From Escherichia coli (GTDB lineage: Bacteria; Pseudomonadota; Gammaproteobacteria; Enterobacterales; Enterobacteriaceae), in the NCBI RefSeq assembly GCF_041886205.1, contig NZ_CP169029.1: a stretch of DNA of 64,000 nt, one strand, 5' to 3'. Under the pieces are notes generated by a model. It worked only from the letters and a program-made list of their open reading frames with translations. It had not been told where the DNA came from and did no database searches. Made by a program: the position numbers and the translations under genes. Of this stretch, positions 2,908 to 64,000 are shown piece by piece (the first letter of the stretch is position 1; every line of letters starts with the position of its first letter).

Positions 2908-3942
2908 ATGGCTTACTCTGTTCAAAAGTCGCGCCTGGCAAAGGTTGCGGGTGTTTCGCTTATTTTATTACTCGCTGCCTGTAGTTCTGACTCACGCTAT
3001 AAGCGTCAGGTCAGTGGTGATGAAGCCTACCTGGAAGCGGCACCGCTTGCGGAGCTTCATGCCCCGGCTGGAATGATTTTGCCGGTGACCTCCGGTGATT
3101 ATGCAATCCCGGTGACCAACGGTAGTGGTGCTGTCGGTAAGGCGCTGGACATTCGTCCACCAGCCCAGCCGCTGGCACTGGTTTCTGGCGCGCGTACCCA
3201 GTTCACGGGCGATACCGCTTCATTGCTGGTGGAAAATGGTCGTGGCAATACTCTGTGGCCGCAGGTGGTTAGCGTGCTGCAGGCGAAAAACTACACCATC
3301 ACCCAACGTGATGATGCTGGTCAGACACTGACAACCGATTGGGTACAATGGAACCGTCTGGACGAAGACGAGCAGTATCGTGGTCGTTATCAAATCTCTG
3401 TTAAGCCGCAGGGTTATCAGCAGGCGGTTACGGTTAAACTGCTGAACCTGGAACAGGCGGGCAAACCGGTTGCAGACGCGGCTTCCATGCAGCGTTACAG
3501 CACGGAGATGATGAACGTTATTTCCGCCGGTCTGGATAAATCTGCCACTGACGCCGCGAACGCTGCGCAAAATCGTGCCTCCACCACTATGGACGTACAA
3601 AGTGCAGCTGATGACACCGGTTTACCAATGCTGGTCGTACGCGGGCCGTTCAATGTGGTTTGGCAACGTCTGCCAGCGGCGCTGGAAAAAGTGGGCATGA
3701 AAGTGACCGACAGCACCCGTTCGCAGGGCAACATGGCCGTAACTTATAAGCCGCTGTCTGACAGCGACTGGCAGGAACTGGGCGCGAGCGATCCAGGCCT
3801 GGCATCCGGTGACTATAAACTGCAGGTTGGCGATTTAGATAACCGCAGTAGCCTACAGTTCATCGATCCGAAAGGTCATACTCTGACTCAGAGTCAGAAC
3901 GACGCGCTGGTAGCTGTCTTCCAGGCTGCGTTTAGCAAGTAA
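2908..3942 (+). CDS. bamC: Outer membrane protein assembly factor BamC (lipoprotein NlpB)
   Basis: [27 protein letters not shown] lipoprotein signal peptide with LAAC lipobox; recognised BamC; ATG at 2908 preceded by GGGAGA. Confidence 0.92.
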
Positions 3943-10907: not shown

Positions 10908-10967
10908 ATGATTGAACGTGAACTGGGGAACTGGAAAGACTTTATCGAAGTTATGCTTCGTAAGTAA
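10908..10967 (+). CDS. ypfM: Small protein YpfM (19 aa)
   Basis: atg att gaa cgt gaa ctg ggg aac tgg aaa gac ttt atc gaa gtt atg ctt cgt aag taa = MIERELGNWKDFIEVMLRK, with AGAGAGG RBS; below ORF-track length cutoff; matches the known E. coli small protein. Confidence 0.7.
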   Translation: MIERELGNWKDFIEVMLRK

Positions 10968-11027: not shown

Positions 11028-11061
11028 AAAAAGGCGACACATTGGCATGTCGCCTTTTTTA
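11028..11061. terminator. Bidirectional rho-independent terminator (ypfM / acrD)
   Basis: AAAAAggcgaca-cattggca-tgtcgccTTTTTT; A-run and T-run flank the stem, so functional on both strands; acrD stop is at 11066. Confidence 0.75.
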
Positions 11062-44447: not shown

Positions 44448-45431
<984 letters not shown>

Positions 45432-53942: not shown

Positions 53943-55029
53943 GATTGCCAATATCAAGAAGTCTTTTGGTCGCACCCAGGTGCTGAATGATATCTCACTG
54001 GATATTCCTTCTGGTCAGATGGTCGCGCTGCTGGGGCCGTCCGGTTCCGGAAAAACCACGCTGCTGCGCATTATTGCCGGGCTGGAGCATCAAACCAGCG
54101 GGCATATTCGCTTCCACGGTACCGACGTGAGCCGCCTGCACGCACGCGATCGTAAAGTCGGTTTCGTGTTCCAGCATTACGCGCTGTTCCGTCATATGAC
54201 GGTGTTCGACAATATCGCTTTTGGCCTGACGGTGCTGCCACGTCGCGAGCGCCCGAATGCCGCAGCCATCAAAGCGAAAGTGACAAAATTGCTGGAGATG
54301 GTCCAGCTTGCCCATCTGGCGGATCGTTATCCGGCACAGCTTTCCGGCGGCCAGAAACAGCGCGTGGCGCTGGCGCGCGCGCTGGCTGTTGAACCGCAAA
54401 TTCTCCTGCTTGATGAACCGTTTGGCGCGCTGGATGCGCAGGTGCGTAAAGAGCTGCGTCGCTGGCTGCGTCAACTGCATGAAGAGCTGAAATTCACCAG
54501 CGTGTTCGTGACCCACGACCAGGAAGAAGCGACCGAAGTAGCTGATCGTGTAGTGGTGATGAGCCAGGGCAATATCGAGCAGGCTGATGCGCCGGACCAG
54601 GTATGGCGCGAACCAGCGACCCGATTTGTGCTCGAATTTATGGGCGAAGTGAACCGCCTGCAGGGAACCATTCGCGGCGGGCAGTTCCATGTTGGCGCAC
54701 ATCGCTGGCCGCTGGGGTATACGCCTGCGTATCAGGGGCCGGTGGATCTCTTCCTGCGCCCGTGGGAAGTGGATATCAGCCGCCGTACCAGTCTCGATTC
54801 GCCGCTGCCGGTACAGGTACTGGAAGCCAGCCCGAAAGGTCATTACACCCAATTAGTCGTGCAGCCGCTGGGGTGGTACAACGAACCGCTGACGGTTGTG
54901 ATGCATGGCGACGATGCCCCGCAGCGTGGCGAGCGTTTATTCGTTGGTCTGCAACATGCGCGGCTGTATAACGGCGACGAGCGTATCGAAACCCGCGATG
55001 AGGAACTTGCTCTCGCACAAAGCGCCTGA
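53932..55029 (+). CDS. cysA: Sulfate/thiosulfate ABC transporter ATP-binding protein CysA
   Basis: 365 aa; Walker [13 protein letters not shown] signature LSGGQKQR; overlaps cysW by 11 nt. Confidence 0.93.
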
Positions 55030-55050
55030 TAGGTTGAGTGAATGTTAAAC

Positions 55051-55086
55051 GCCCGGAGGCGCTTCCCGCGATCCGGGCTTTTTAAT
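55051..55086 (+). terminator. Terminator-like hairpin between cysA and cysM
   Basis: gcccgga-(14-nt loop)-tccgggc followed by TTTTTAAT. Confidence 0.5.
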
Positions 55087-55100
55087 GGCAAGGTTTGTAA

Positions 55101-55140
55101 CCTGTAGACCTGATAAGACGCGCAAGCGTCGCATCAGGCA
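55101..55140. repeat. REP element between cysA and cysM
   Basis: cctgtagacctgataagacgcgcaagcgtcgcatcaggca, REP-like palindrome. Confidence 0.7.
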
Positions 55141-55162
55141 ACACCACGTATGGATAGAGATC

Positions 55163-56074
55163 GTGAGTACATTAGAACAAACAATAGGCAATACGCCTCT
55201 GGTAAAGTTGCAGCGAATGGGGCCGAATAACGGCAGTGAAGTGTGGTTGAAACTGGAAGGCAATAACCCGGCAGGTTCGGTGAAAGATCGTGCGGCACTT
55301 TCGATGATCGTCGAGGCGGAAAAGCGCGGGGAAATTAAACCGGGTAATGTGTTAATCGAAGCCACCAGTGGTAACACCGGCATTGCGCTGGCAATGATTG
55401 CCGCGCTTAAAGGCTATCGCATGAAATTGCTGATGCCCGACAACATGAGCCAGGAACGCCGTGCGGCGATGCGTGCTTATGGTGCGGAACTGATTCTTGT
55501 CACCAAAGAGCAGGGCATGGAAGGTGCGCGCGATCTGGCGCTGGAGATGGCGAATCGTGGTGAAGGAAAGCTGCTCGATCAGTTCAATAATCCCGATAAC
55601 CCTTACGCCCATTACACCACCACCGGGCCGGAAATCTGGCAGCAGACTGGCGGGCGCATTACCCATTTTGTCTCCAGCATGGGAACAACCGGCACTATCA
55701 CCGGCGTGTCACGCTTTATGCGCGAACAATCCAAACCGGTGACCATTGTTGGCCTGCAGCCGGAAGAAGGCAGCAGTATTCCGGGCATTCGCCGCTGGCC
55801 TGCGGAATATCTGCCGGGGATTTTCAATGCTTCTCTGGTGGATGAGGTGCTGGATATTCATCAGCGCGATGCGGAAAACACCATGCGCGAACTGGCTGTG
55901 CGGGAAGGAATATTCTGTGGCGTCAGCTCCGGCGGCGCGGTTGCCGGAGCACTGCGGGTGGCAAAAGCTAACCCTGGTGCGGTGGTGGTAGCGATCATCT
56001 GCGATCGTGGCGATCGCTACCTTTCCACCGGGGTGTTTGGGGAAGAGCATTTTAGTCAGGGGGCGGGGATTTAA
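55163..56074 (+). CDS. cysM: Cysteine synthase B (O-acetylserine sulfhydrylase B)
   Basis: 303 aa from the GTG at 55163 (annotated N-terminus MSTLEQTIGNTPLVKL); PLP-lysine motif SVKDRAA; ORF track extends upstream into the REP region. Confidence 0.9.
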   Translation: MSTLEQTIGNTPLVKLQRMGPNNGSEVWLKLEGNNPAGSVKDRAALSMIVEAEKRGEIKPGNVLIEATSGNTGIALAMIAALKGYRMKLLMPDNMSQERRAAMRAYGAELILVTKEQGMEGARDLALEMANRGEGKLLDQFNNPDNPYAHYTTTGPEIWQQTGGRITHFVSSMGTTGTITGVSRFMREQSKPVTIVGLQPEEGSSIPGIRRWPAEYLPGIFNASLVDEVLDIHQRDAENTMRELAVREGIFCGVSSGGAVAGALRVAKANPGAVVVAIICDRGDRYLSTGVFGEEHFSQGAGI

Positions 56075-56076
56075 GA

Positions 56077-56445
56077 TTATTGCGCAGGCACTGTTTTATC
56101 CGTCTGCGCAATTAACGCATGTAAAAAAAGCTGTGCATTCTCATCGCTCTTACCGGGCATCTTCACGATATACGGCTTCCCGGTAATCGATGATGACGAA
56201 GCAACCTTGTCAATAAACTGCTCGGCAGTGTCAATGCGGTTACGGGTATTGCTGAGCTTCAGACGCAGGTGGGAAACCGCTTCATCGCAGGTATGTTCAT
56301 CGCCGTTGCGCACAAATATCAAATCCTTTTTCTGTGCTAATCCCTCCAGCATGGCGTTGATGCGGGCTTCTTCATGGGCAGTTAACTTCGCGTAAGCGGG
56401 GAGTGTCATTAGTAGTGTAATGACCAGACAAATGATTTTCTTCAT
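56077..56445 (-). CDS. yfeK: Uncharacterised secreted protein YfeK (DUF5329-like)
   Basis: 122 aa with signal peptide [19 protein letters not shown]; convergent with cysM, stops 2 bp apart. Confidence 0.8.
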
Positions 56446-56470
56446 TGAATTACCTTATCCTTGTTTTGTG

Positions 56471-56536
<66 letters not shown>

Positions 56537-56549
56537 GAGAAAAAATTAA

Positions 56550-57401
56550 ATGAGTAGTTTGTTGTTGTTTAACGATAAGAGCAGGGCACTGCAGGCGGAT
56601 ATCGTCGCCGTGCAGTCGCAGGTAGTGTACGGCAGCGTAGGCAACAGCATTGCCGTGCCTGCTATCAAACAGAACGGCCTGAATGTCTTTGCCGTGCCGA
56701 CGGTATTGCTGAGCAATACGCCGCATTATGACACTTTCTACGGTGGTGCGATTCCGGATGAATGGTTTAGCGGCTATTTGCGTGCACTTCAGGAGCGTGA
56801 TGCGCTGCGCCAACTTCGTGCTGTAACCACGGGCTATATGGGAACGGCATCGCAAATCAAAATCCTTGCCGAGTGGCTGACTGCGCTACGCAAAGACCAT
56901 CCTGACCTATTGATCATGGTCGATCCGGTGATTGGCGATATTGATAGCGGAATTTATGTCAAACCTGACCTTCCCGAGGCGTATCGACAATATTTACTGC
57001 CGCTGGCGCAGGGAATTACCCCCAATATCTTTGAGCTGGAAATCCTGACCGGTAAAAATTGCCGCGATCTCGACAGTGCCATTGCTGCCGCAAAAAGTCT
57101 GCTTTCAGACACATTAAAATGGGTGGTGATTACCAGCGCCTCCGGTAATGAAGAAAATCAGGAGATGCAGGTTGTGGTGGTCACTGCCGACAGCGTGAAT
57201 GTCATTTCCCATTCACGGGTAAAAACCGACCTGAAAGGGACTGGCGACCTGTTTTGTGCTCAGCTTATCAGTGGTTTGCTGAAAGGGAAGGCATTAAACG
57301 ATGCGGTGCACCGCGCGGGGTTGCGCGTACTGGAAGTGATGCGCTACACCCAGCAGCATGAGAGCGATGAATTGATTTTGCCGCTGCTGGCGGAAGCATA
57401 A
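56550..57401 (+). CDS. pdxK: Pyridoxal/pyridoxine/pyridoxamine kinase
   Basis: 283 aa ribokinase-fold protein; recognised PdxK. Confidence 0.92.
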
Positions 57402-57430
57402 AAAAATGGCGCCGATGGGCGCCATTTTTC
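57400..57430. terminator. Bidirectional rho-independent terminator (pdxK / crr)
   Basis: AAAAAAatggcgcc-gatg-ggcgccatTTTTT perfect stem flanked by A-run and T-run. Confidence 0.85.
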
Positions 57431-57443
57431 ACTGCGGCAAGAA

Positions 57444-57953
57444 TTACTTCTTGATGCGGATAACCGGGGTTTCACCCACAGTCACGCTACCGGACAGTTT
57501 GATCAGTTCTTTGATTTCGTCCATGTTGGAGATAACAACCGGAGTCAGGGTAGACTTGGCTTTCTCTTCCAGCAGCGGCAGATCAAATTCAATGACAGTA
57601 TCGCCAACTTTCACGCGCTGACCTTCTTCAGCAATACGCTTGAAGCCTTCGCCTTTCAGTTCAACGGTGTCGATACCGAAGTGGACGAACAGTTCAACGC
57701 CGCTATCAGATTCGATAGAGAATGCGTGGTTGGTTTCAAAGATTTTACCAATGGTGCCGTCTACAGGCGCGACCATTTTGTTACCCGTTGGTTTGATAGC
57801 AATACCATCACCAACGATTTTTTCCGCAAAAACGACATCCGGCACGTCTTCGATATTGACGATCTCGCCAGAGAGCGGAGCAATGATCTCAATAGTTCCG
57901 GTATCCTTCTTGTCGTCGGAAACCAGAGATTTCAGTTTATCGAACAAACCCAT
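57444..57953 (-). CDS. crr: PTS glucose-specific EIIA component
   Basis: 169 aa; recognised EIIA-Glc. Confidence 0.95.
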
Positions 57954-57993
57954 GATCTTCTCCTAAGCAGTAAATTGGGCCGCATCTCGTGGA

Positions 57994-59721
57994 TTAGCAG
58001 ATTGTTTTTTCTTCAATGAACTTGTTAACCAGCGTCATTAACTCGTCCGTTGTCGGTTGAGCAAGAGCCTGCTCTGCTAACACCTTCGCATCTTCGAAGT
58101 TCGTGTTACGGATAATCTTCTTAATGCGCGGGATAGAAATGGCGCTCATAGAGAATTCGTCCAGACCCATCCCCAGCAACAGAAGTGTAGCACGTTCATC
58201 GCCAGCAAGCTCACCACACATGCCAGTCCATTTGCCTTCAGCATGAGAAGCATCAATAACTTGCTTGATCAAGTTCAGCACGGACGGTGACATTGGCTGG
58301 TAAAGGTGTGAAATCATATCATTACCACGGTCAACTGCCAGAGTGTACTGCGTTAAATCATTGGTGCCGATACTAAAGAAATCAACTTCTTTGGCTAAAT
58401 GACGTGCAATTGTTGCGGCAGCCGGTGTTTCCACCATTACGCCGATTTCAATTGACTCGTCAAACGCTTTACCTTCGTCGCGCAGTTCCTGTTTGTAGAT
58501 TTCAATCTCTTTGCGCAGTGTACGCACTTCTTCAACAGAGATGATCATCGGGAACATAATGCGCAATTTACCGAAAGCCGAGGCACGCAGGATAGCGCGG
58601 AGCTGATCGCGCAGGATCTCTTTACGATCCATCGCGATACGGATAGCGCGCCAGCCGAGGAACGGGTTCTCTTCTTTCGGGAAGTTCATGTATGGCAGCT
58701 CTTTGTCGCCGCCGATGTCCATGGTACGAACGATAACCGCCTGCGAGCCACACGCTTCAGCCACTGCTTTGTAAGCAGCAAACTGTTCTTCTTCAGTGGG
58801 CAGCGCGTCGCGGTCCATGAACAGGAACTCAGTACGATACAGACCAACGCCTTCAGCGCCGTTACGCTCTGCACCTTCAACGTCACGAACCGTACCAATG
58901 TTAGCGCACACTTCTACCTGGTGACCGTCCAGCGTAATAGCTGGCAGATCTTTCAGTTTAGCAAGCTCTGCTTTTTCAGAAGCCACTTGCTCCTGAACAG
59001 CGCGCATTTTATCAATAACTTCGTTGGTTGGATTGACGTAAACCTGATTATTTACGGCATCCAGAATCAGATAGTCGTCATTTTTCACCTGAGAGGTGAC
59101 GCTACCGGTACCCACGATAGCAGGCAGTTCCAGAGAACGCGCCATGATAGAGGTGTGGGAAGTACGGCCACCCGCGTCGGTGATGAAACCCAGCACCTTC
59201 TTCAGGTTCAGCTGTGCGGTTTCGGACGGCGTCAGGTCAGCGGCAACCAGAATGACTTCATCCTGAATGGCGCTCAGGTCGATAATCTTCAGGCCCAGGA
59301 TGTTGCGCAGCAGGCGCTTACCGATATCACGTACGTCAGCCGCACGTTCTTTCAGGTATTCATCATCCAGCTCTTCCAGGGCAGAAGCCTGACCTTCGAT
59401 AACTTCATGAGCAGCTGCGTCAGCTGTCATGTGCTTATCTTTAATCAGGGCTATGATTTCCTGCTCCAGCTCCTCATCTTCGAGCAGCATAATATGCCCT
59501 TCAAAGATGGCTTCTTTTTCTTCACCGAACGTTTCACCAGCTTTCGTTTTGATCGTTTCCAGCTGGGCTGATGCCTTGGCACGACCGCTCAGAAAACGTT
59601 CAACTTCCTGATCAACCTGGTCGGCAGAAATTTTTTTCCGGTCAATGACAATTTCGTCTTCTTTCAGAAGCAGAGCTTTACCGAAAGCGATACCCGGGGA
59701 TGCTAAAATGCCTGAAATCAT
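57994..59721 (-). CDS. ptsI: PTS Enzyme I (phosphoenolpyruvate-protein phosphotransferase)
   Basis: 575 aa; recognised Enzyme I. Confidence 0.95.
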
Positions 59722-59765
59722 AACCCTACCTTACTTGTGACTGATTTTTAAAAGAACCCGGGAAA

Positions 59766-60023
59766 TTACTCGAGTTCCGCCATCAGTTTAACCAGATGTT
59801 CAACCGCTTTCTGCTCGTCTTCGCCTTCTGCGGAGATAGTCACAACGGTACCTTGAGTCAGGCCCAGAGTCTGCAGTTTAAACAGGCTTTTCGCGCTGGC
59901 GCTTTTGCCGTTGGAAGTCACAGTAATTTCAGAAGTGAAGCCCTTAGCTTCTTTTACAAACTGGGCAGCAGGGCGGGTGTGCAGACCGTTCGGAGCGGTA
60001 ATGGTAACTTCTTGCTGGAACAT
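59766..60023 (-). CDS. ptsH: PTS phosphocarrier protein HPr
   Basis: 85 aa [27 protein letters not shown] with active-site His15. Confidence 0.95.
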
Positions 60024-60355
60024 TGTATTTCCCCAACTTATAGGTTTAGTGTTGTGGAACTAAAGTCTAGTCTGGCGGTTCGACTTTAGCCTGGATAGTT
60101 AGCGCCAGTTTTTAACAGACGCGACGCACGAAGAGCGCAATACAGTCCATTGCTGGCGGGTGTTGACCGCTGACGTTTCGTACGTCATTAAACATTATGC
60201 CGCTAAAGGAAGAATTGAACCAAATCATAAAATCGATTCAGCTTTGGCTTTTCCTGTAACGATTAATTTCGCGCATCAAAATAATTAGTCTGGTTAAATA
60301 CCAGTTCCGACAGGCTGAATCAATGCCAGGAGGGGCGAAAGTTTGAAGCAGGCCA

Positions 60356-60386
60356 CAAAAAAGCACCTGAAAAGGTGCTTTTTTAC
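60356..60386. terminator. Bidirectional rho-independent terminator downstream of cysK
   Basis: AAAAAAgcacc-tgaaaa-ggtgcTTTTTT, about 20 bp past the cysK stop. Confidence 0.8.
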
Positions 60387-60406
60387 GCATTTTTAACAAG
60401 CTGGCA

Positions 60407-61378
60407 TTACTGTTGCAACTCTTTCTCAGTGAAGAGATCGGCAAACAATGCGGTGCTTAAATAACGCTCACCCGATGATGGTAGAATAACCACAATATTC
60501 TTGTTGGTAAAGCTTTCATCTTCTTGTAGTTTCAACGCTGCGGCAACAGCTGCTCCAGAAGAGATACCTGCAAGAATACCTTCTTCTTCCATTAGACGAC
60601 GGGCGGTAGAAATGGCTTCTTCATTGGTGATGCCAATGACTTTATCGACCAGCTTGAGATCGAGGTTAGCCGGGATAAAACCAGCGCCAATACCCTGAAT
60701 TTTATGCGGGCCAGGTTTAATCTCTTCACCTGCCAGCGCCTGGGCGATAACTGGAGAATCGGTTGGCTCAACGGCGACAGAGATAAGATCGGTCTTGCCT
60801 TTAGTGCCTTTAATGTAGCGGCTAACGCCAGTCAGCGTACCGCCAGTCCCAACGCCAGCAATAAATACATCAACCTGACCGTCGGTATCTTCCCAGATCT
60901 CCGGACCGGTGGTTTTTTCGTGAATTTCAGGGTTTGCCGGATTGCTGAATTGTTGCAGCAGCAGGTATTTATCTGGATTGCTGGCGACAATTTCTTCTGC
61001 TTTTTGGATTGCGCCTTTCATGCCTTTAGCACCTTCGGTCAGCACCAGGTTTGCACCTAACGCTTTCAGCAGCTTGCGGCGTTCAATACTCATGGTTTCT
61101 GGCATGGTCAGGGTAAGTTTGTAACCGCGAGCGGCAGCGACATAGGCCAGTGCAATCCCGGTATTACCGCTGGTTGGTTCAACCAGTTCAACGCCTGGTT
61201 TAAGCACGCCGCGCTTTTCGGCATCCCAAATCATGTTGGCACCGATACGGCACTTAACGCTGAAGCTGGGGTTACGAGATTCCACCTTCGCCAGAATGCG
61301 TCCGTTACCGATGCGATTCAGGCGAACCAGCGGCGTGTGACCGATAGTCAGCGAGTTATCTTCAAAAATCTTACTCAT
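60407..61378 (-). CDS. cysK: Cysteine synthase A (O-acetylserine sulfhydrylase A)
   Basis: 323 aa; recognised CysK. Confidence 0.95.
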
Positions 61379-61562
61379 GGCCTGTCCTTAACTGTATGAA
61401 ATTGGGATACAACAGGTAGCATACCCGCTCAGAGAATATGCGGAAGTAAGGATTTAGCATATCTATATGCAGAAGGGAAATAATGACATGCAAGATGGAA
61501 TAAGGGGCGGCATAAGCCACCCCTGTTTCACACAAGCGGTTTACAAAATAACCGGTAGATTG

Positions 61563-62324
61563 TTACCGCCACATCGCGTGTTTATCGCGATAGCAATCGA
61601 CCCACATCGCCGTCGCGCCACAAACGGCAACGGGCATGATGAACAGATTAAGCAGAGGGATCATCGTAAACAGGCTGGTTAAAGCACCAAACTGCATATT
61701 GGTGATTTTGCGTGTGCGCAGGGCGGTGCGCATCTCTTTAAACGGCACTTTGTGGTTATCGAAGGGGTAATCGCAATACTGGATGGCTAACATCCAGGCG
61801 CTAAACAGGAACCACAGTACCGGCGCGACGGTTTGCCCAATACCAGGGATGAAGTAAAGAATTAGTAATACAATTGCGCGCGGCAGATACCAGGCAAATT
61901 TTTGCCATTCGCGTTTCATGATTCGCGGCACATCTTTCATGATACCGAAAATCCCGGTATCTGGCGGTGTAGCGCCAGTCAATCGTGCTTCCAGTTGTTC
62001 AGCCAATAAACCGTTAAACGGAGCGGCAATCCAGTTAGCAATCGTGGAGAAGAAATAGCCAAACACTAACAGCACAGAGATGACAGCCAGAGGCCACAAC
62101 AGATAGCTCAGCCATTGTAACCAGTCCGGAACATAACTCATGAGAGTCGGGATCCAGACATCGAGTTGCGTAAAGAGCCACCAGAATGCGCCCCCCATCA
62201 ACAAAATATTGACCAGCAGCGGTAAAATAACGAAACGCCGAATCCCAGGTTGCGAGACGAGCTTCCAGCCTTGCGCAAAATAGTAAAAACCGCTGCGTGG
62301 GGCAGATGTGAATGATGAAACCAT
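61563..62324 (-). CDS. cysZ: Sulfate transporter CysZ
   Basis: 253 aa polytopic membrane protein; recognised CysZ. Confidence 0.92.
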
Positions 62325-62553
62325 AATCAGGATGAGCTCCTTTTGACCAATCCCAGGAAAATTCTGCGTATTTTACCGGGTAATTGCGCAATGGACAGTT
62401 AGGATATGTTCGAAAAAACAGCAAAAAGCACGATTTCATCTATCTTTGTGCTGTGAAAGTTAATAGTGCACTTGCACTTGAGGTAATCGGCAAATACTCT
62501 TAGTGAGTAAATGTTTGCCGTGGTGGCAAGGTGTTAGAACAACAGAGAATATA

Positions 62554-63540
62554 ATGATGCAGGATTTGCGTCTGATATTAATCATTGTTGGCGCGATCGC
62601 CATAATCGCTTTACTGGTACATGGTTTCTGGACCAGCCGTAAAGAACGATCTTCTATGTTCCGCGATCGGCCATTAAAACGAATGAAGTCAAAACGTGAC
62701 GACGATTCTTATGACGAGGATGTCGAAGATGATGAGGGCGTTGGTGAGGTTCGAGTTCACCGCGTGAATCATGCCCCGGCTAACGCCCAGGAGCATGAGG
62801 CTGCTCGTCCGTCGCCGCAACACCAGTACCAACCGCCTTATGCGTCTGCCCAGCCGCGTCAACCGGTCCAGCAGCCGCCTGAAGCGCAGGTACCGCCGCA
62901 ACATGCTCCGCGTCCAGCGCAGCCGGTGCAGCAGCCTGCCTATCAGCCGCAGCCTGAACAGCCGTTGCAGCAGCCAGTTTCGCCACAGGTCGCATCAGCG
63001 CCGCAGCCAGTGCATTCAGCACCGCAACCGGCACAACAGGCTTTCCAGCCTGCAGAACCTGTAGCGGCACCACAGCCTGAGCCTGTAGCGGAACCGGCTC
63101 CAGTTATGGATAAACCGAAGCGCAAAGAAGCGGTGGTTATCATGAACGTCGCGGCGCATCACGGTAGCGAGCTAAACGGTGAACTGCTTCTTAACAGCAT
63201 TCAACAAGCGGGCTTCATTTTTGGCGATATGAATATTTACCATCGTCATCTTAGCCCGGATGGCAGCGGCCCGGCGTTATTTAGCCTGGCGAATATGGTG
63301 AAACCGGGAACCTTTGATCCTGAAATGAAGGATTTCACTACTCCGGGTGTCACTATCTTTATGCAGGTACCGTCTTACGGTGACGAGCTGCAGAACTTCA
63401 AGCTGATGCTGCAATCTGCGCAGCATATTGCCGATGAAGTCGGCGGTGTAGTGCTTGACGATCAGCGCCGTATGATGACTCCGCAGAAATTGCGCGAGTA
63501 CCAGGACATCATCCGCGAAGTCAAAGACGCCAACGCCTGA
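62554..63540 (+). CDS. zipA: Cell division protein ZipA
   Basis: 328 aa from [26 protein letters not shown] (N-terminal TM anchor), long P/Q-rich linker, C-terminal FtsZ-binding domain; ORF track extends 17 codons upstream. Confidence 0.92.
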
Positions 63541-63570
63541 TACACTTAAGGCAAATTAACTCCTCTTCGA

Positions 63571-63594
63571 ACCCCCGCTTGTCGGGGGTTTTTA
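63571..63594 (+). terminator. Rho-independent terminator downstream of zipA
   Basis: acccccg-cttgt-cgggggt followed by TTTTT. Confidence 0.7.
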
Positions 63595-63601
63595 GCATTG
63601 A

Positions 63602-64000
<399 letters not shown>

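Follow-up and report, generated by a model that had tools for sequence, protein, structure and literature searches.

A single hairpin in the gap between the convergent genes pdxK and crr of Escherichia coli very probably serves as a Rho-independent terminator for both genes, one on each strand. Its anatomy and fold are those of an intrinsic terminator in either direction, RNA 3′ ends mapped in vivo lie at the hairpin on each strand with local read-through of ~0-1%, and its structure is conserved among species through compensatory change. The case is weaker in the pdxK direction, where the U-tract has five nucleotides, the RNAs end slightly past the U-run and the stop codon is near the GC core.

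The pdxK-crr gap contains a hairpin with terminator features on both strands

In the 64,000-nt stretch of E. coli DNA analyzed here (the window), pdxK and crr run toward each other across a gap of 42 bp (57402-57443) according to the ORF list. RefSeq annotation of identical E. coli DNA and Pfam matches confirm the identities of both genes (Table 1), and the gap has the length given in the preliminary description of this DNA. The crr gene is the last gene of ptsHI-crr. Over 1.7 kb around the hairpin the sequence matches several E. coli chromosomes at 100% identity, and in these pdxK and crr are annotated, with ptsI and yfeK as neighbors. Between 57380 and 57460 a single base, inside pdxK, differs from K-12 MG1655, and the intergenic DNA is identical; window positions correspond to 2593787 minus the K-12 coordinate, a conversion that was checked on both stop codons. 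Small ORFs also run across the hairpin, such as 57406-57621 on the + strand, antisense to crr.

The sequence from 57396 to 57433 reads GCAT AAAAAAA TGGCGCC GATG GGCGCCA TTTTT CACT. The A-run, stem, 4-nt loop and T-run that had been described from the letters are all present (A7/TGGCGCC/GATG/GGCGCCA/T5), and the stem, which has 7 bp of which 6 are G-C pairs (GGCGCC), contains no mismatch. The earlier count of an 8-bp GC stem referred to a real hairpin and was slightly loose, as there are six G-C pairs, seven pairs with the T-A pair and eight when one A-T pair from the runs is added. The A-run begins within the pdxK stop codon TAA, whose two A it shares, and consists of 6 A instead of 7 in some E. 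coli strains. The GC core begins 5 nt past the pdxK stop and 19 nt past the crr stop. On the pdxK side the U5 tract is followed by C and is shorter than ideal for an intrinsic terminator.

RNAfold pairs 12-13 bp once the A and U runs join the stem, giving fold energies with the runs of -19.6 kcal/mol for the + strand and -19.4 kcal/mol for the - strand, compared with -7.3 +/- 2.4 kcal/mol for shuffled sequence (z ~ -5; none of 200 shuffles was as stable). The core hairpin, with the runs removed, folds at -14.2 kcal/mol in the pdxK sense and -12.9 kcal/mol in the crr sense. A scan that required a perfect stem (6 bp or more, 4 or more of them G-C) with a run of 4 or more A on one side and 4 or more T on the other found four such hairpins in the window (11033-54, 44492-510, 57407-24 and 60363-78), and dinucleotide shuffles (n = 100) yielded a mean of 0.07 with a maximum of 2. 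A stricter class of these hairpins has two members, those at 11033 and 57407, and none in any of the 100 shuffles.

A built-in promoter and terminator scan did not report the pdxK-crr hairpin, by our reading because the A and T runs, together with a G-T pair, were taken into the stem and left no T-tail. As a clean example of a canonical two-way terminator that such a simple scan misses, the element would serve well as a positive control for programs that predict terminators. A scan of 54000-64000 against Rfam at E <= 1 found no family at the hairpin.

Table 1. Coordinates in the window of the pdxK-crr terminator, its flanking genes, the mapped RNA 3′ ends and two similar hairpins
Feature	Position	Strand	Source or remark
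pdxK CDS, pyridoxal/pyridoxine/pyridoxamine kinase	56550..57401	+	ORF list, RefSeq annotation, Pfam Phos_pyr_kin/PfkB
pdxK stop codon TAA	57399-57401	+	
crr mRNA 3′-end peak, published	57392..57404, dominant 57399-57401	-	on the pdxK stop codon; PMC10687069 Supplementary Data 2-4
A-run, A7	57400..57406	.	templates U7 of the crr-sense terminator; sequence
5′ hairpin arm TGGCGCC	57407..57413	.	sequence, folds
Loop GATG, 4 nt	57414..57417	.	sequence
3′ hairpin arm GGCGCCA	57418..57424	.	sequence, folds
T-run, T5	57425..57429	.	U5 tract of the pdxK-sense terminator; sequence
pdxK mRNA 3′-end peak, published	57426..57435, dominant 57434/57435	+	PMC10687069 Supplementary Data 2-4
crr stop codon TAA	57444-57446 (complement)	-	
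crr CDS, PTS enzyme IIA-Glc	57444..57953	-	ORF list, annotation, Pfam PTS_EIIA_1
Hairpin A5 / GGCGACA ... TGTCGCC / T6	11028..11061	.	between convergent ypfM and acrD
Hairpin A6 / GCACCT ... AGGTGC / T6	60356..60386	.	after cysK (-), upstream of co-directional ptsH (-)

RNA 3′ ends map to the hairpin on both strands

Bar et al. 2023 (PMC10687069) reanalyzed Term-seq and RNAtag-seq data and called 3′ termini with the TRS method. Their Term-seq table for BW25113 contains a "Primary pdxK" terminus at K-12 2536352-2536361 on the - strand of that genome (dominant 2536352, signal 1, adjusted p 0, 0, 0 in the three replicates) and a "Primary crr" terminus at 2536383-2536392 on its + strand, window 57395-57404 (dominant 2536386, signal 0.9988, adjusted p 0, 0, 0). 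Independent RNAtag-seq of MG1655 places the ends at 2536352-2536360 (dominant 2536353) and 2536383-2536395 (dominant 2536387), and a third table in the same paper gives 2536353 for pdxK and 2536388 for crr. Thus, three data sets agree on both ends, the Term-seq of BW25113, the RNAtag-seq of MG1655 and the authors' own paired libraries (PMC10687069). The signal in these tables, R = L/(L+D), equals 1 minus the local read-through and compares a 3-nt window with the next 67 nt; with R = 1.0 for pdxK and 0.99-0.999 for crr, local read-through is ~0-1% both ways.

The dominant crr end falls 6-8 nt beyond the stem, where the U7 tract finishes. The dominant pdxK end falls 10-11 nt beyond the stem, 5-6 nt beyond U5, in a mapping that uses a 3-nt window. 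The tabulated 3′ UTRs measure 46 nt for crr and 34 nt for pdxK (PMC10687069), and, as the two peaks flank the hairpin, the crr and pdxK mRNAs overlap by ~35 nt, roughly 57399-57435. Read density over crr is ~60 times that over pdxK (PMC10687069 Supplementary Data 4). In 3′-end maps of this kind, termination and 3′-to-5′ exonucleolytic trimming back to a hairpin look alike; we infer that both sets of ends here are driven by the hairpin rather than produced by processing, and that both arise independently of Rho.

The preliminary description had proposed a bidirectional intrinsic terminator common to pdxK and crr and had named Term-seq 3′ ends on both strands as the check, with a lack of ends at the T-run or A-run side speaking against it. 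Ends were found at 57426-57435 (+) and 57392-57404 (-) (PMC10687069), and, because both sit on or just past the U-runs, the data show the opposite of such a lack; the proposal is thus supported by published ends on both strands.

Adams et al. 2021 (PMC7815308) give a curated list of Term-seq ends for three conditions, which has no 3′ end at K-12 25363xx; it does contain the end at the cysK hairpin, 2533432. Each published 3′-end data set carries many ends unique to that set (Bar et al., PMC10687069), and, with both ends present in the three data sets above, we read this absence as incompleteness of a stringent list, although it counts as evidence against the two-way reading. Supplementary file 2 of Adams et al. 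lists no Rho-termination region at K-12 2,536,000-2,536,799, a negative whose meaning is weakened by the low expression of pdxK. Neither pdxK nor crr is present in the TERMITe supplements, and a literature search found no paper that treats pdxK, crr and the terminator together.

The preliminary description had also pointed to similar A-stem-T structures after ypfM/acrD and after cysK. Both are real, and each has published ends on one side only (ypfM; cysK). The ypfM gene occupies 10908-10967 (+) and the acrD stop codon 11066-11068 (-); the hairpin between them folds at -20.6 and -18.0 kcal/mol, and the Term-seq ends include one for ypfM (K-12 2590707-2590717) and none for acrD (PMC10687069). 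For cysK an end is listed at 2533427-2533437, with none on the opposite strand among the rows listed (PMC10687069). Among the three hairpins compared, two-way use is documented for pdxK-crr only.

Pairing in the post-crr hairpin is conserved across species

Loci for comparison were collected with the last eight crr codons plus the stop codon, one genome per species, which gave at least 120 loci from Enterobacterales, Aeromonas and Enterovibrio. A post-crr hairpin was counted if its stem had 5 bp or more, including 4 or more G-C pairs, if the next 8 nt held 5 or more T and if it started no more than 70 nt from the crr stop. Among the matches listed, 106 of 119 usable loci (species) carry a perfect hairpin of this kind with its T-run, and the remaining 13 mostly harbor an imperfect hairpin, for example with a G-U pair or one mismatch. 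These hairpins comprise at least 28 distinct arm sequences and at least 64 distinct loops. The pairing is conserved across species and the sequence is not, which argues for an RNA structure and against a DNA-binding motif.

Covariation was examined in an alignment of 70 distinct Enterobacterales sequences with a GGCRCC core, which were picked for a perfect hairpin, so that 100% pairing of the core is true by construction. The informative part of this alignment is therefore the double, compensatory changes that its sequences display at two positions, pair 9-29 (UA 38, CG 25, AU 7) and pair 13-25 (GC 39, AU 31), counted in the 70 sequences among the matches listed. The covariation score was 0.233 versus 0.127 +/- 0.008 in shuffled alignments, none of 500 of which scored as high, and controls in which the pairing was slid reached at most 0.110.

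The gene that converges on crr varies. It is pdxK in 43 loci among the matches listed; elsewhere the convergent ORF encodes a PLP-dependent enzyme (Pfam PALP) that we read by eye as cysM (L047, with a similar ORF, also by eye, in L034), a sensor histidine kinase (L014 by Pfam; a similar ORF in L027 by eye), a Dyp-type peroxidase (L022), a GGDEF protein (L020) or a GntR regulator (L043). Among the matches listed, the 28 species in which pdxK abuts the hairpin have a mean A-run of 4.9, with at least 4 contiguous A in 25 of 28 (89%), and the 15 species in which pdxK lies more than 150 nt off have a mean of 3.1, with at least 4 A in 6 of 15 (40%). The latter belong to Citrobacter, Salmonella arizonae, Klebsiella/Raoultella and Kluyvera, and their A-run is typically broken to AAGAA. 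The crr-side T-run is longer with a distant pdxK, 6.7 versus 5.3 with an abutting pdxK among the matches listed. That the A-run is better kept beside an adjacent pdxK would fit selection from both sides, in an association that rests on few clades (Citrobacter, Salmonella, Klebsiella) and on statistics that ignore kinship.

In general, an upstream A-tract strengthens intrinsic terminators. An A-run of at least 4 precedes the hairpin in 7 of the 13 listed loci whose downstream gene is co-directional by ORF call, and in 6 of the 13 listed loci with a distant convergent gene. As A-runs are thus common also where no convergent gene is adjacent, the A-tract alone is no proof of use in the reverse direction.

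IS4 insertions at the hairpin center

At least six E. coli genomes carry IS4 at the exact center of the hairpin, among them SMS-3-5, SC516 and RMDEC465. In SMS-3-5 the junctions read ...AAAAAAATGG[CGCCGATGGGCG]-IS4-[CGCCGATGGGCG]CCATTTTT, and in RMDEC465 IS4 occupies the same hairpin position in a flipped loop allele, [CGCCCATCGGCG]. The target duplication is 12 bp in the two IS4 copies whose junctions were read, and these copies lie in different loop alleles. The flipped loop, CATC in the pdxK sense, occurs with no IS4 in 17-19 of 5426 E. coli genomes, and about 56-59 of 5425 genomes have no contiguous match across the hairpin site.

The target rule of IS4 is AAA-N20-TTT. Two sites were checked against it, and it fits both, the pdxK-crr hairpin and the site of the IS4 (insG) copy of E. 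coli strain 7/2, AAA-TAGGC[ATCTTGGTTCTG]GTG-TTT. A literature search for this rule gave no match, and a review of the IS4 family goes no further than strong specificity in the target arms. Because the element inserts at the hairpin center, carriers would be natural knock-outs of both terminators, and such strains could serve as natural mutants for the effects of terminator destruction. In Pantoea sp. alder81 (L119) the hairpin is likewise split at its center by sequence resembling an IS4 end; neither a right junction (within 2.8 kb) nor an IS4-type transposase was found there.

Discussion

The pdxK-crr element combines a stable GC stem-loop, an adjacent U-tract, a position just after a stop codon, in vivo 3′ ends and a conserved structure, by which intrinsic terminators are recognized, and it is a single hairpin in a convergent gap with A7/T5 flanks and ends on both strands, as expected of a bidirectional one. 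A polymerase arriving from crr (- strand) would transcribe A5, UGGCGCC-CAUC-GGCGCCA and then U7; the hairpin would form in the exit channel while a weak rU:dA hybrid occupies the active site, and the RNA would be released at ~57399-57401. A polymerase arriving from pdxK (+ strand) would transcribe A7, UGGCGCC-GAUG-GGCGCCA and then U5, with its end falling between 57426 and 57435. The A-run of either direction would thus double as the template for the U-tract of the opposite one, so that the 3′ UTRs, ~46 nt for crr and ~34 nt for pdxK, would overlap, and neither gene would be transcribed antisense into the other. In the pdxK direction, a ribosome terminating at the stop codon, 5 nt away from the GC core, would sit over the 5′ arm.

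The canonical model of E. coli intrinsic terminators is reportedly that of d'Aubenton Carafa (1990) and Lesnik (2001). The pdxK-crr hairpin resembles these terminators in its GC-rich 7-bp stem, 4-nt loop, immediate U-tract and site after a stop codon, in RNA ends at or just past the U-tract and in an upstream A-tract that can lengthen the stem. It differs in that it qualifies on both strands at once and in that its A-tract overlaps a stop codon; nothing essential differs. A bidirectional terminator between convergent genes is said to have been described by Postle and Good in 1985, the tonB-P14 terminator. As related in a later preprint, SEnd-seq found "overlapping bidirectional terminators" to be widespread (Ju, Li and Liu 2019). 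The pdxK-crr element shares with tonB-P14 and this SEnd-seq class a single hairpin between convergent genes and ends on both strands, here with an overlap of ~35 nt. The same preprint describes its example, the ynaJ-uspE element, as one that is weak when transcribed from one side alone and that relies on collisions, whereas pdxK-crr looks strong and canonical each way. The primary termini of crr and pdxK in genome-wide maps (Bar et al. 2023, PMC10687069; Term-seq data of Dar and Sorek 2018) concern the same locus and this very element; in those tables each end has its own entry, and the site is never called a bidirectional terminator. As both 3′ ends are in published tables, the element is already known. 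REP/BIME palindromes are likewise extragenic and hairpin-forming and often lie between convergent genes, but the pdxK-crr hairpin is single-copy, lacks the REP consensus, is flanked by A and T runs and has a much shorter stem; with one mismatch tolerated, the 64-kb window still contains a single GGCGCC-N4-GGCGCC, in place of the multiple copies typical of REP/BIME, and the site has no Rfam match. In Citrobacter youngae (L059) a REP-like sequence was observed after crr.

The explanation closest to a two-way terminator is that the hairpin works in one direction only, for the highly expressed ptsHI-crr, its A-tract being an ordinary strengthener and the pdxK RNA, whether read through or ended by Rho, being trimmed back to the hairpin. 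The weaknesses of the pdxK side all lean this way, namely just five U, a dominant end 5-6 nt beyond the U-run and a stop codon 5 nt from the GC core, as do the A-runs of at least 4 in 7/13 co-directional and 6/13 distant-convergent listed loci and the ~60-fold higher read density of crr, under which selection from the crr side would dominate. We nonetheless regard it as unlikely: R is 1.0 for pdxK with an adjusted p of 0 in three replicates and no read starts in the downstream 67 nt, Adams et al. list no Rho-termination region nearby, A-runs of at least 4 are found in 89% of species with an abutting pdxK versus 40% with a distant one among the matches listed, and the hairpin is at least as stable in the pdxK sense as in the crr sense (-14.2 vs. 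-12.9 kcal/mol).

Two further explanations are less probable still. Head-on collisions between polymerases might drive termination, the hairpin serving to pause them and so set their meeting point; convergent genes whose 3′ ends overlap across a single hairpin suit the SEnd-seq class, and under heavy crr transcription pdxK polymerases would often meet opposing traffic. The canonical intrinsic features are, however, complete in both directions, unlike those of ynaJ-uspE, and the 60-fold imbalance leaves the crr side unexplained: with crr read ~60 times as densely as pdxK and yet ~99% end formation at crr, most crr terminations must take place with no pdxK polymerase present. Moreover, the hairpin plus T-run persists after crr where the downstream gene is co-directional by ORF call. 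We therefore consider a collision-driven mechanism improbable. That the palindrome is due to chance, is an extragenic repeat or is bound by a protein, instead of acting at the RNA level, is scarcely credible. GGCGCC-N4-GGCGCC is indeed a palindrome in DNA and, with one mismatch allowed, has at least one match in 39 of 100 shuffles, but the full structure of A-run, stem and T-run is absent from the shuffles, the hairpin is a single copy in the window with no Rfam family, RNA 3′ ends on both strands map to it, and the compensatory changes among species contradict this reading as well. A Rho-independent terminator shared by pdxK and crr thus accounts best for these observations.

As a more tentative proposal, which we hold to be possible but somewhat short of probable, the A-tract that serves pdxK would be retained only for as long as a convergent gene lies next to the hairpin, and the hairpin would offer IS4 the geometry AAA-N20-TTT, which the element hits centrally. 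If true, retention of the A-tract beside an adjacent gene would be evolutionary evidence of selection on both directions. The element sets where the transcripts of ptsHI-crr and pdxK end, which matters little beyond annotation; for the cell, the terminator would keep transcription of a very active sugar-transport operon from running antisense into a vitamin B6 salvage gene of low expression, and vice versa.

Sequence variation in the pdxK/crr hairpin and A-run

Within E. coli, the hairpin between the convergent pdxK and crr genes carries an alternative, flipped-loop allele, in which window positions 57414-57417 read CATC in place of GATG (pdxK sense) on the same stem. Of 5426 E. coli genomes, 17-19 carry this allele in an uninterrupted hairpin; it could have arisen either by two substitutions or by inversion of the loop between the two arms. 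The adjacent A-run (window 57400-57406) also varies in length within the species, with six A residues in strain ARL09/232; in other sampled genomes of the 98.3% identity band, the match likewise falls short of the query length by one base. On the crr side, the 6-A allele has a U-tract that is one residue shorter.

Other hairpins and Rfam matches in the window

A further hairpin in the window, the fourth, is flanked by A-rich and T-rich sequence (Table), and an AGGAGG-ATG start lies approximately 20 nt downstream of it. The K-12 copy of this hairpin coincides with an "orphan" Term-seq 3' end (2550560/1), located just upstream of yfeX (Adams et al., PMC7815308). The cysK terminator loop (window 60369-60372) differs from that of K-12 by one base, reading GCACCTTTTCAGGTGC in the cysK sense compared with GCACCTTTTTAGGTGC in K-12. 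The cysM (+, end 56074) and yfeK (-, end 56077) genes are also convergent, with a gap of 2 bp, and no hairpin is present in this gap (window 56074-56077). In K-12, these genes are separated by an extra gene, yfeS, which is missing from the window, LHM10-1 and SMS-3-5. Two Rfam matches fell below their gathering scores (Table), one of them to the 3' part of naRNA4, described by Rfam as a nucleoid-associated noncoding RNA.

Coordinates of IS4 insertions, the fourth hairpin and sub-threshold Rfam matches
Feature	Sequence	Coordinates	Strand	Detail
IS4 insertion in pdxK/crr hairpin	Window	57403-57428		Corresponding site
IS4 insertion	L128 (NZ_CM177019.1)	311-345 and 1740-1775
IS4 insertion	L129 (NC_010498.1)	1600-1640 and 3040-3075
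Fourth hairpin	Window	44492-44510		TGCCACG GATTG CGTGGCA
Rev42_5p_UTR	Window	62067-62500	+	46.8 bits; gathering score 229
naRNA4 (3' part)	Window	55108-55140	-	34.1 bits; gathering score 59.5

The crr terminator region in other species

In species with 250-400 nt between pdxK and crr, REP-like palindromes, such as GCCGGATAAGGCGTTTACGCCGCATCCGGC, occur in the additional DNA; these were read in the first 100 nt past the crr hairpin or stop at loci L059 (Citrobacter youngae), L063, L084 and L091 (Salmonella arizonae). In C. youngae, a REP-like element directly abuts the crr stop, and a search of the first 130 nt beyond this stop revealed no canonical hairpin with a T-run. In Pantoea sp. alder81 (L119, 6440-6520), the crr terminator hairpin is interrupted at its center, the junction reading ...CGGCACCCAATGGGTG and then TAATGCTTGTCAGTTAAAG, the latter similar by eye to the IS4 left end (about 15/18). 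The right junction of the interrupting sequence was not found within 2.8 kb, nor was an IS4-type transposase found by tblastn.

IS4 insertion into the pdxK/crr hairpin

IS4 occupies the exact center of the pdxK/crr terminator hairpin in RMDEC465, SMS-3-5, SC516, TCM3e1 and at least two further E. coli genomes. Both copies whose junctions were read (n = 2) are flanked by a 12-bp target duplication, and the two reside in different loop alleles. The target rule described for IS4 is AAA-N20-TTT, a pattern that is matched by the pdxK/crr hairpin site and also by the one IS4 (insG) copy of E. coli strain 7/2 that was examined. In approximately 56-59 of 5425 genomes, no unbroken match spans the hairpin site, whatever the cause. 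Insertion of IS4 into the pdxK/crr hairpin would be predicted to destroy both terminators.
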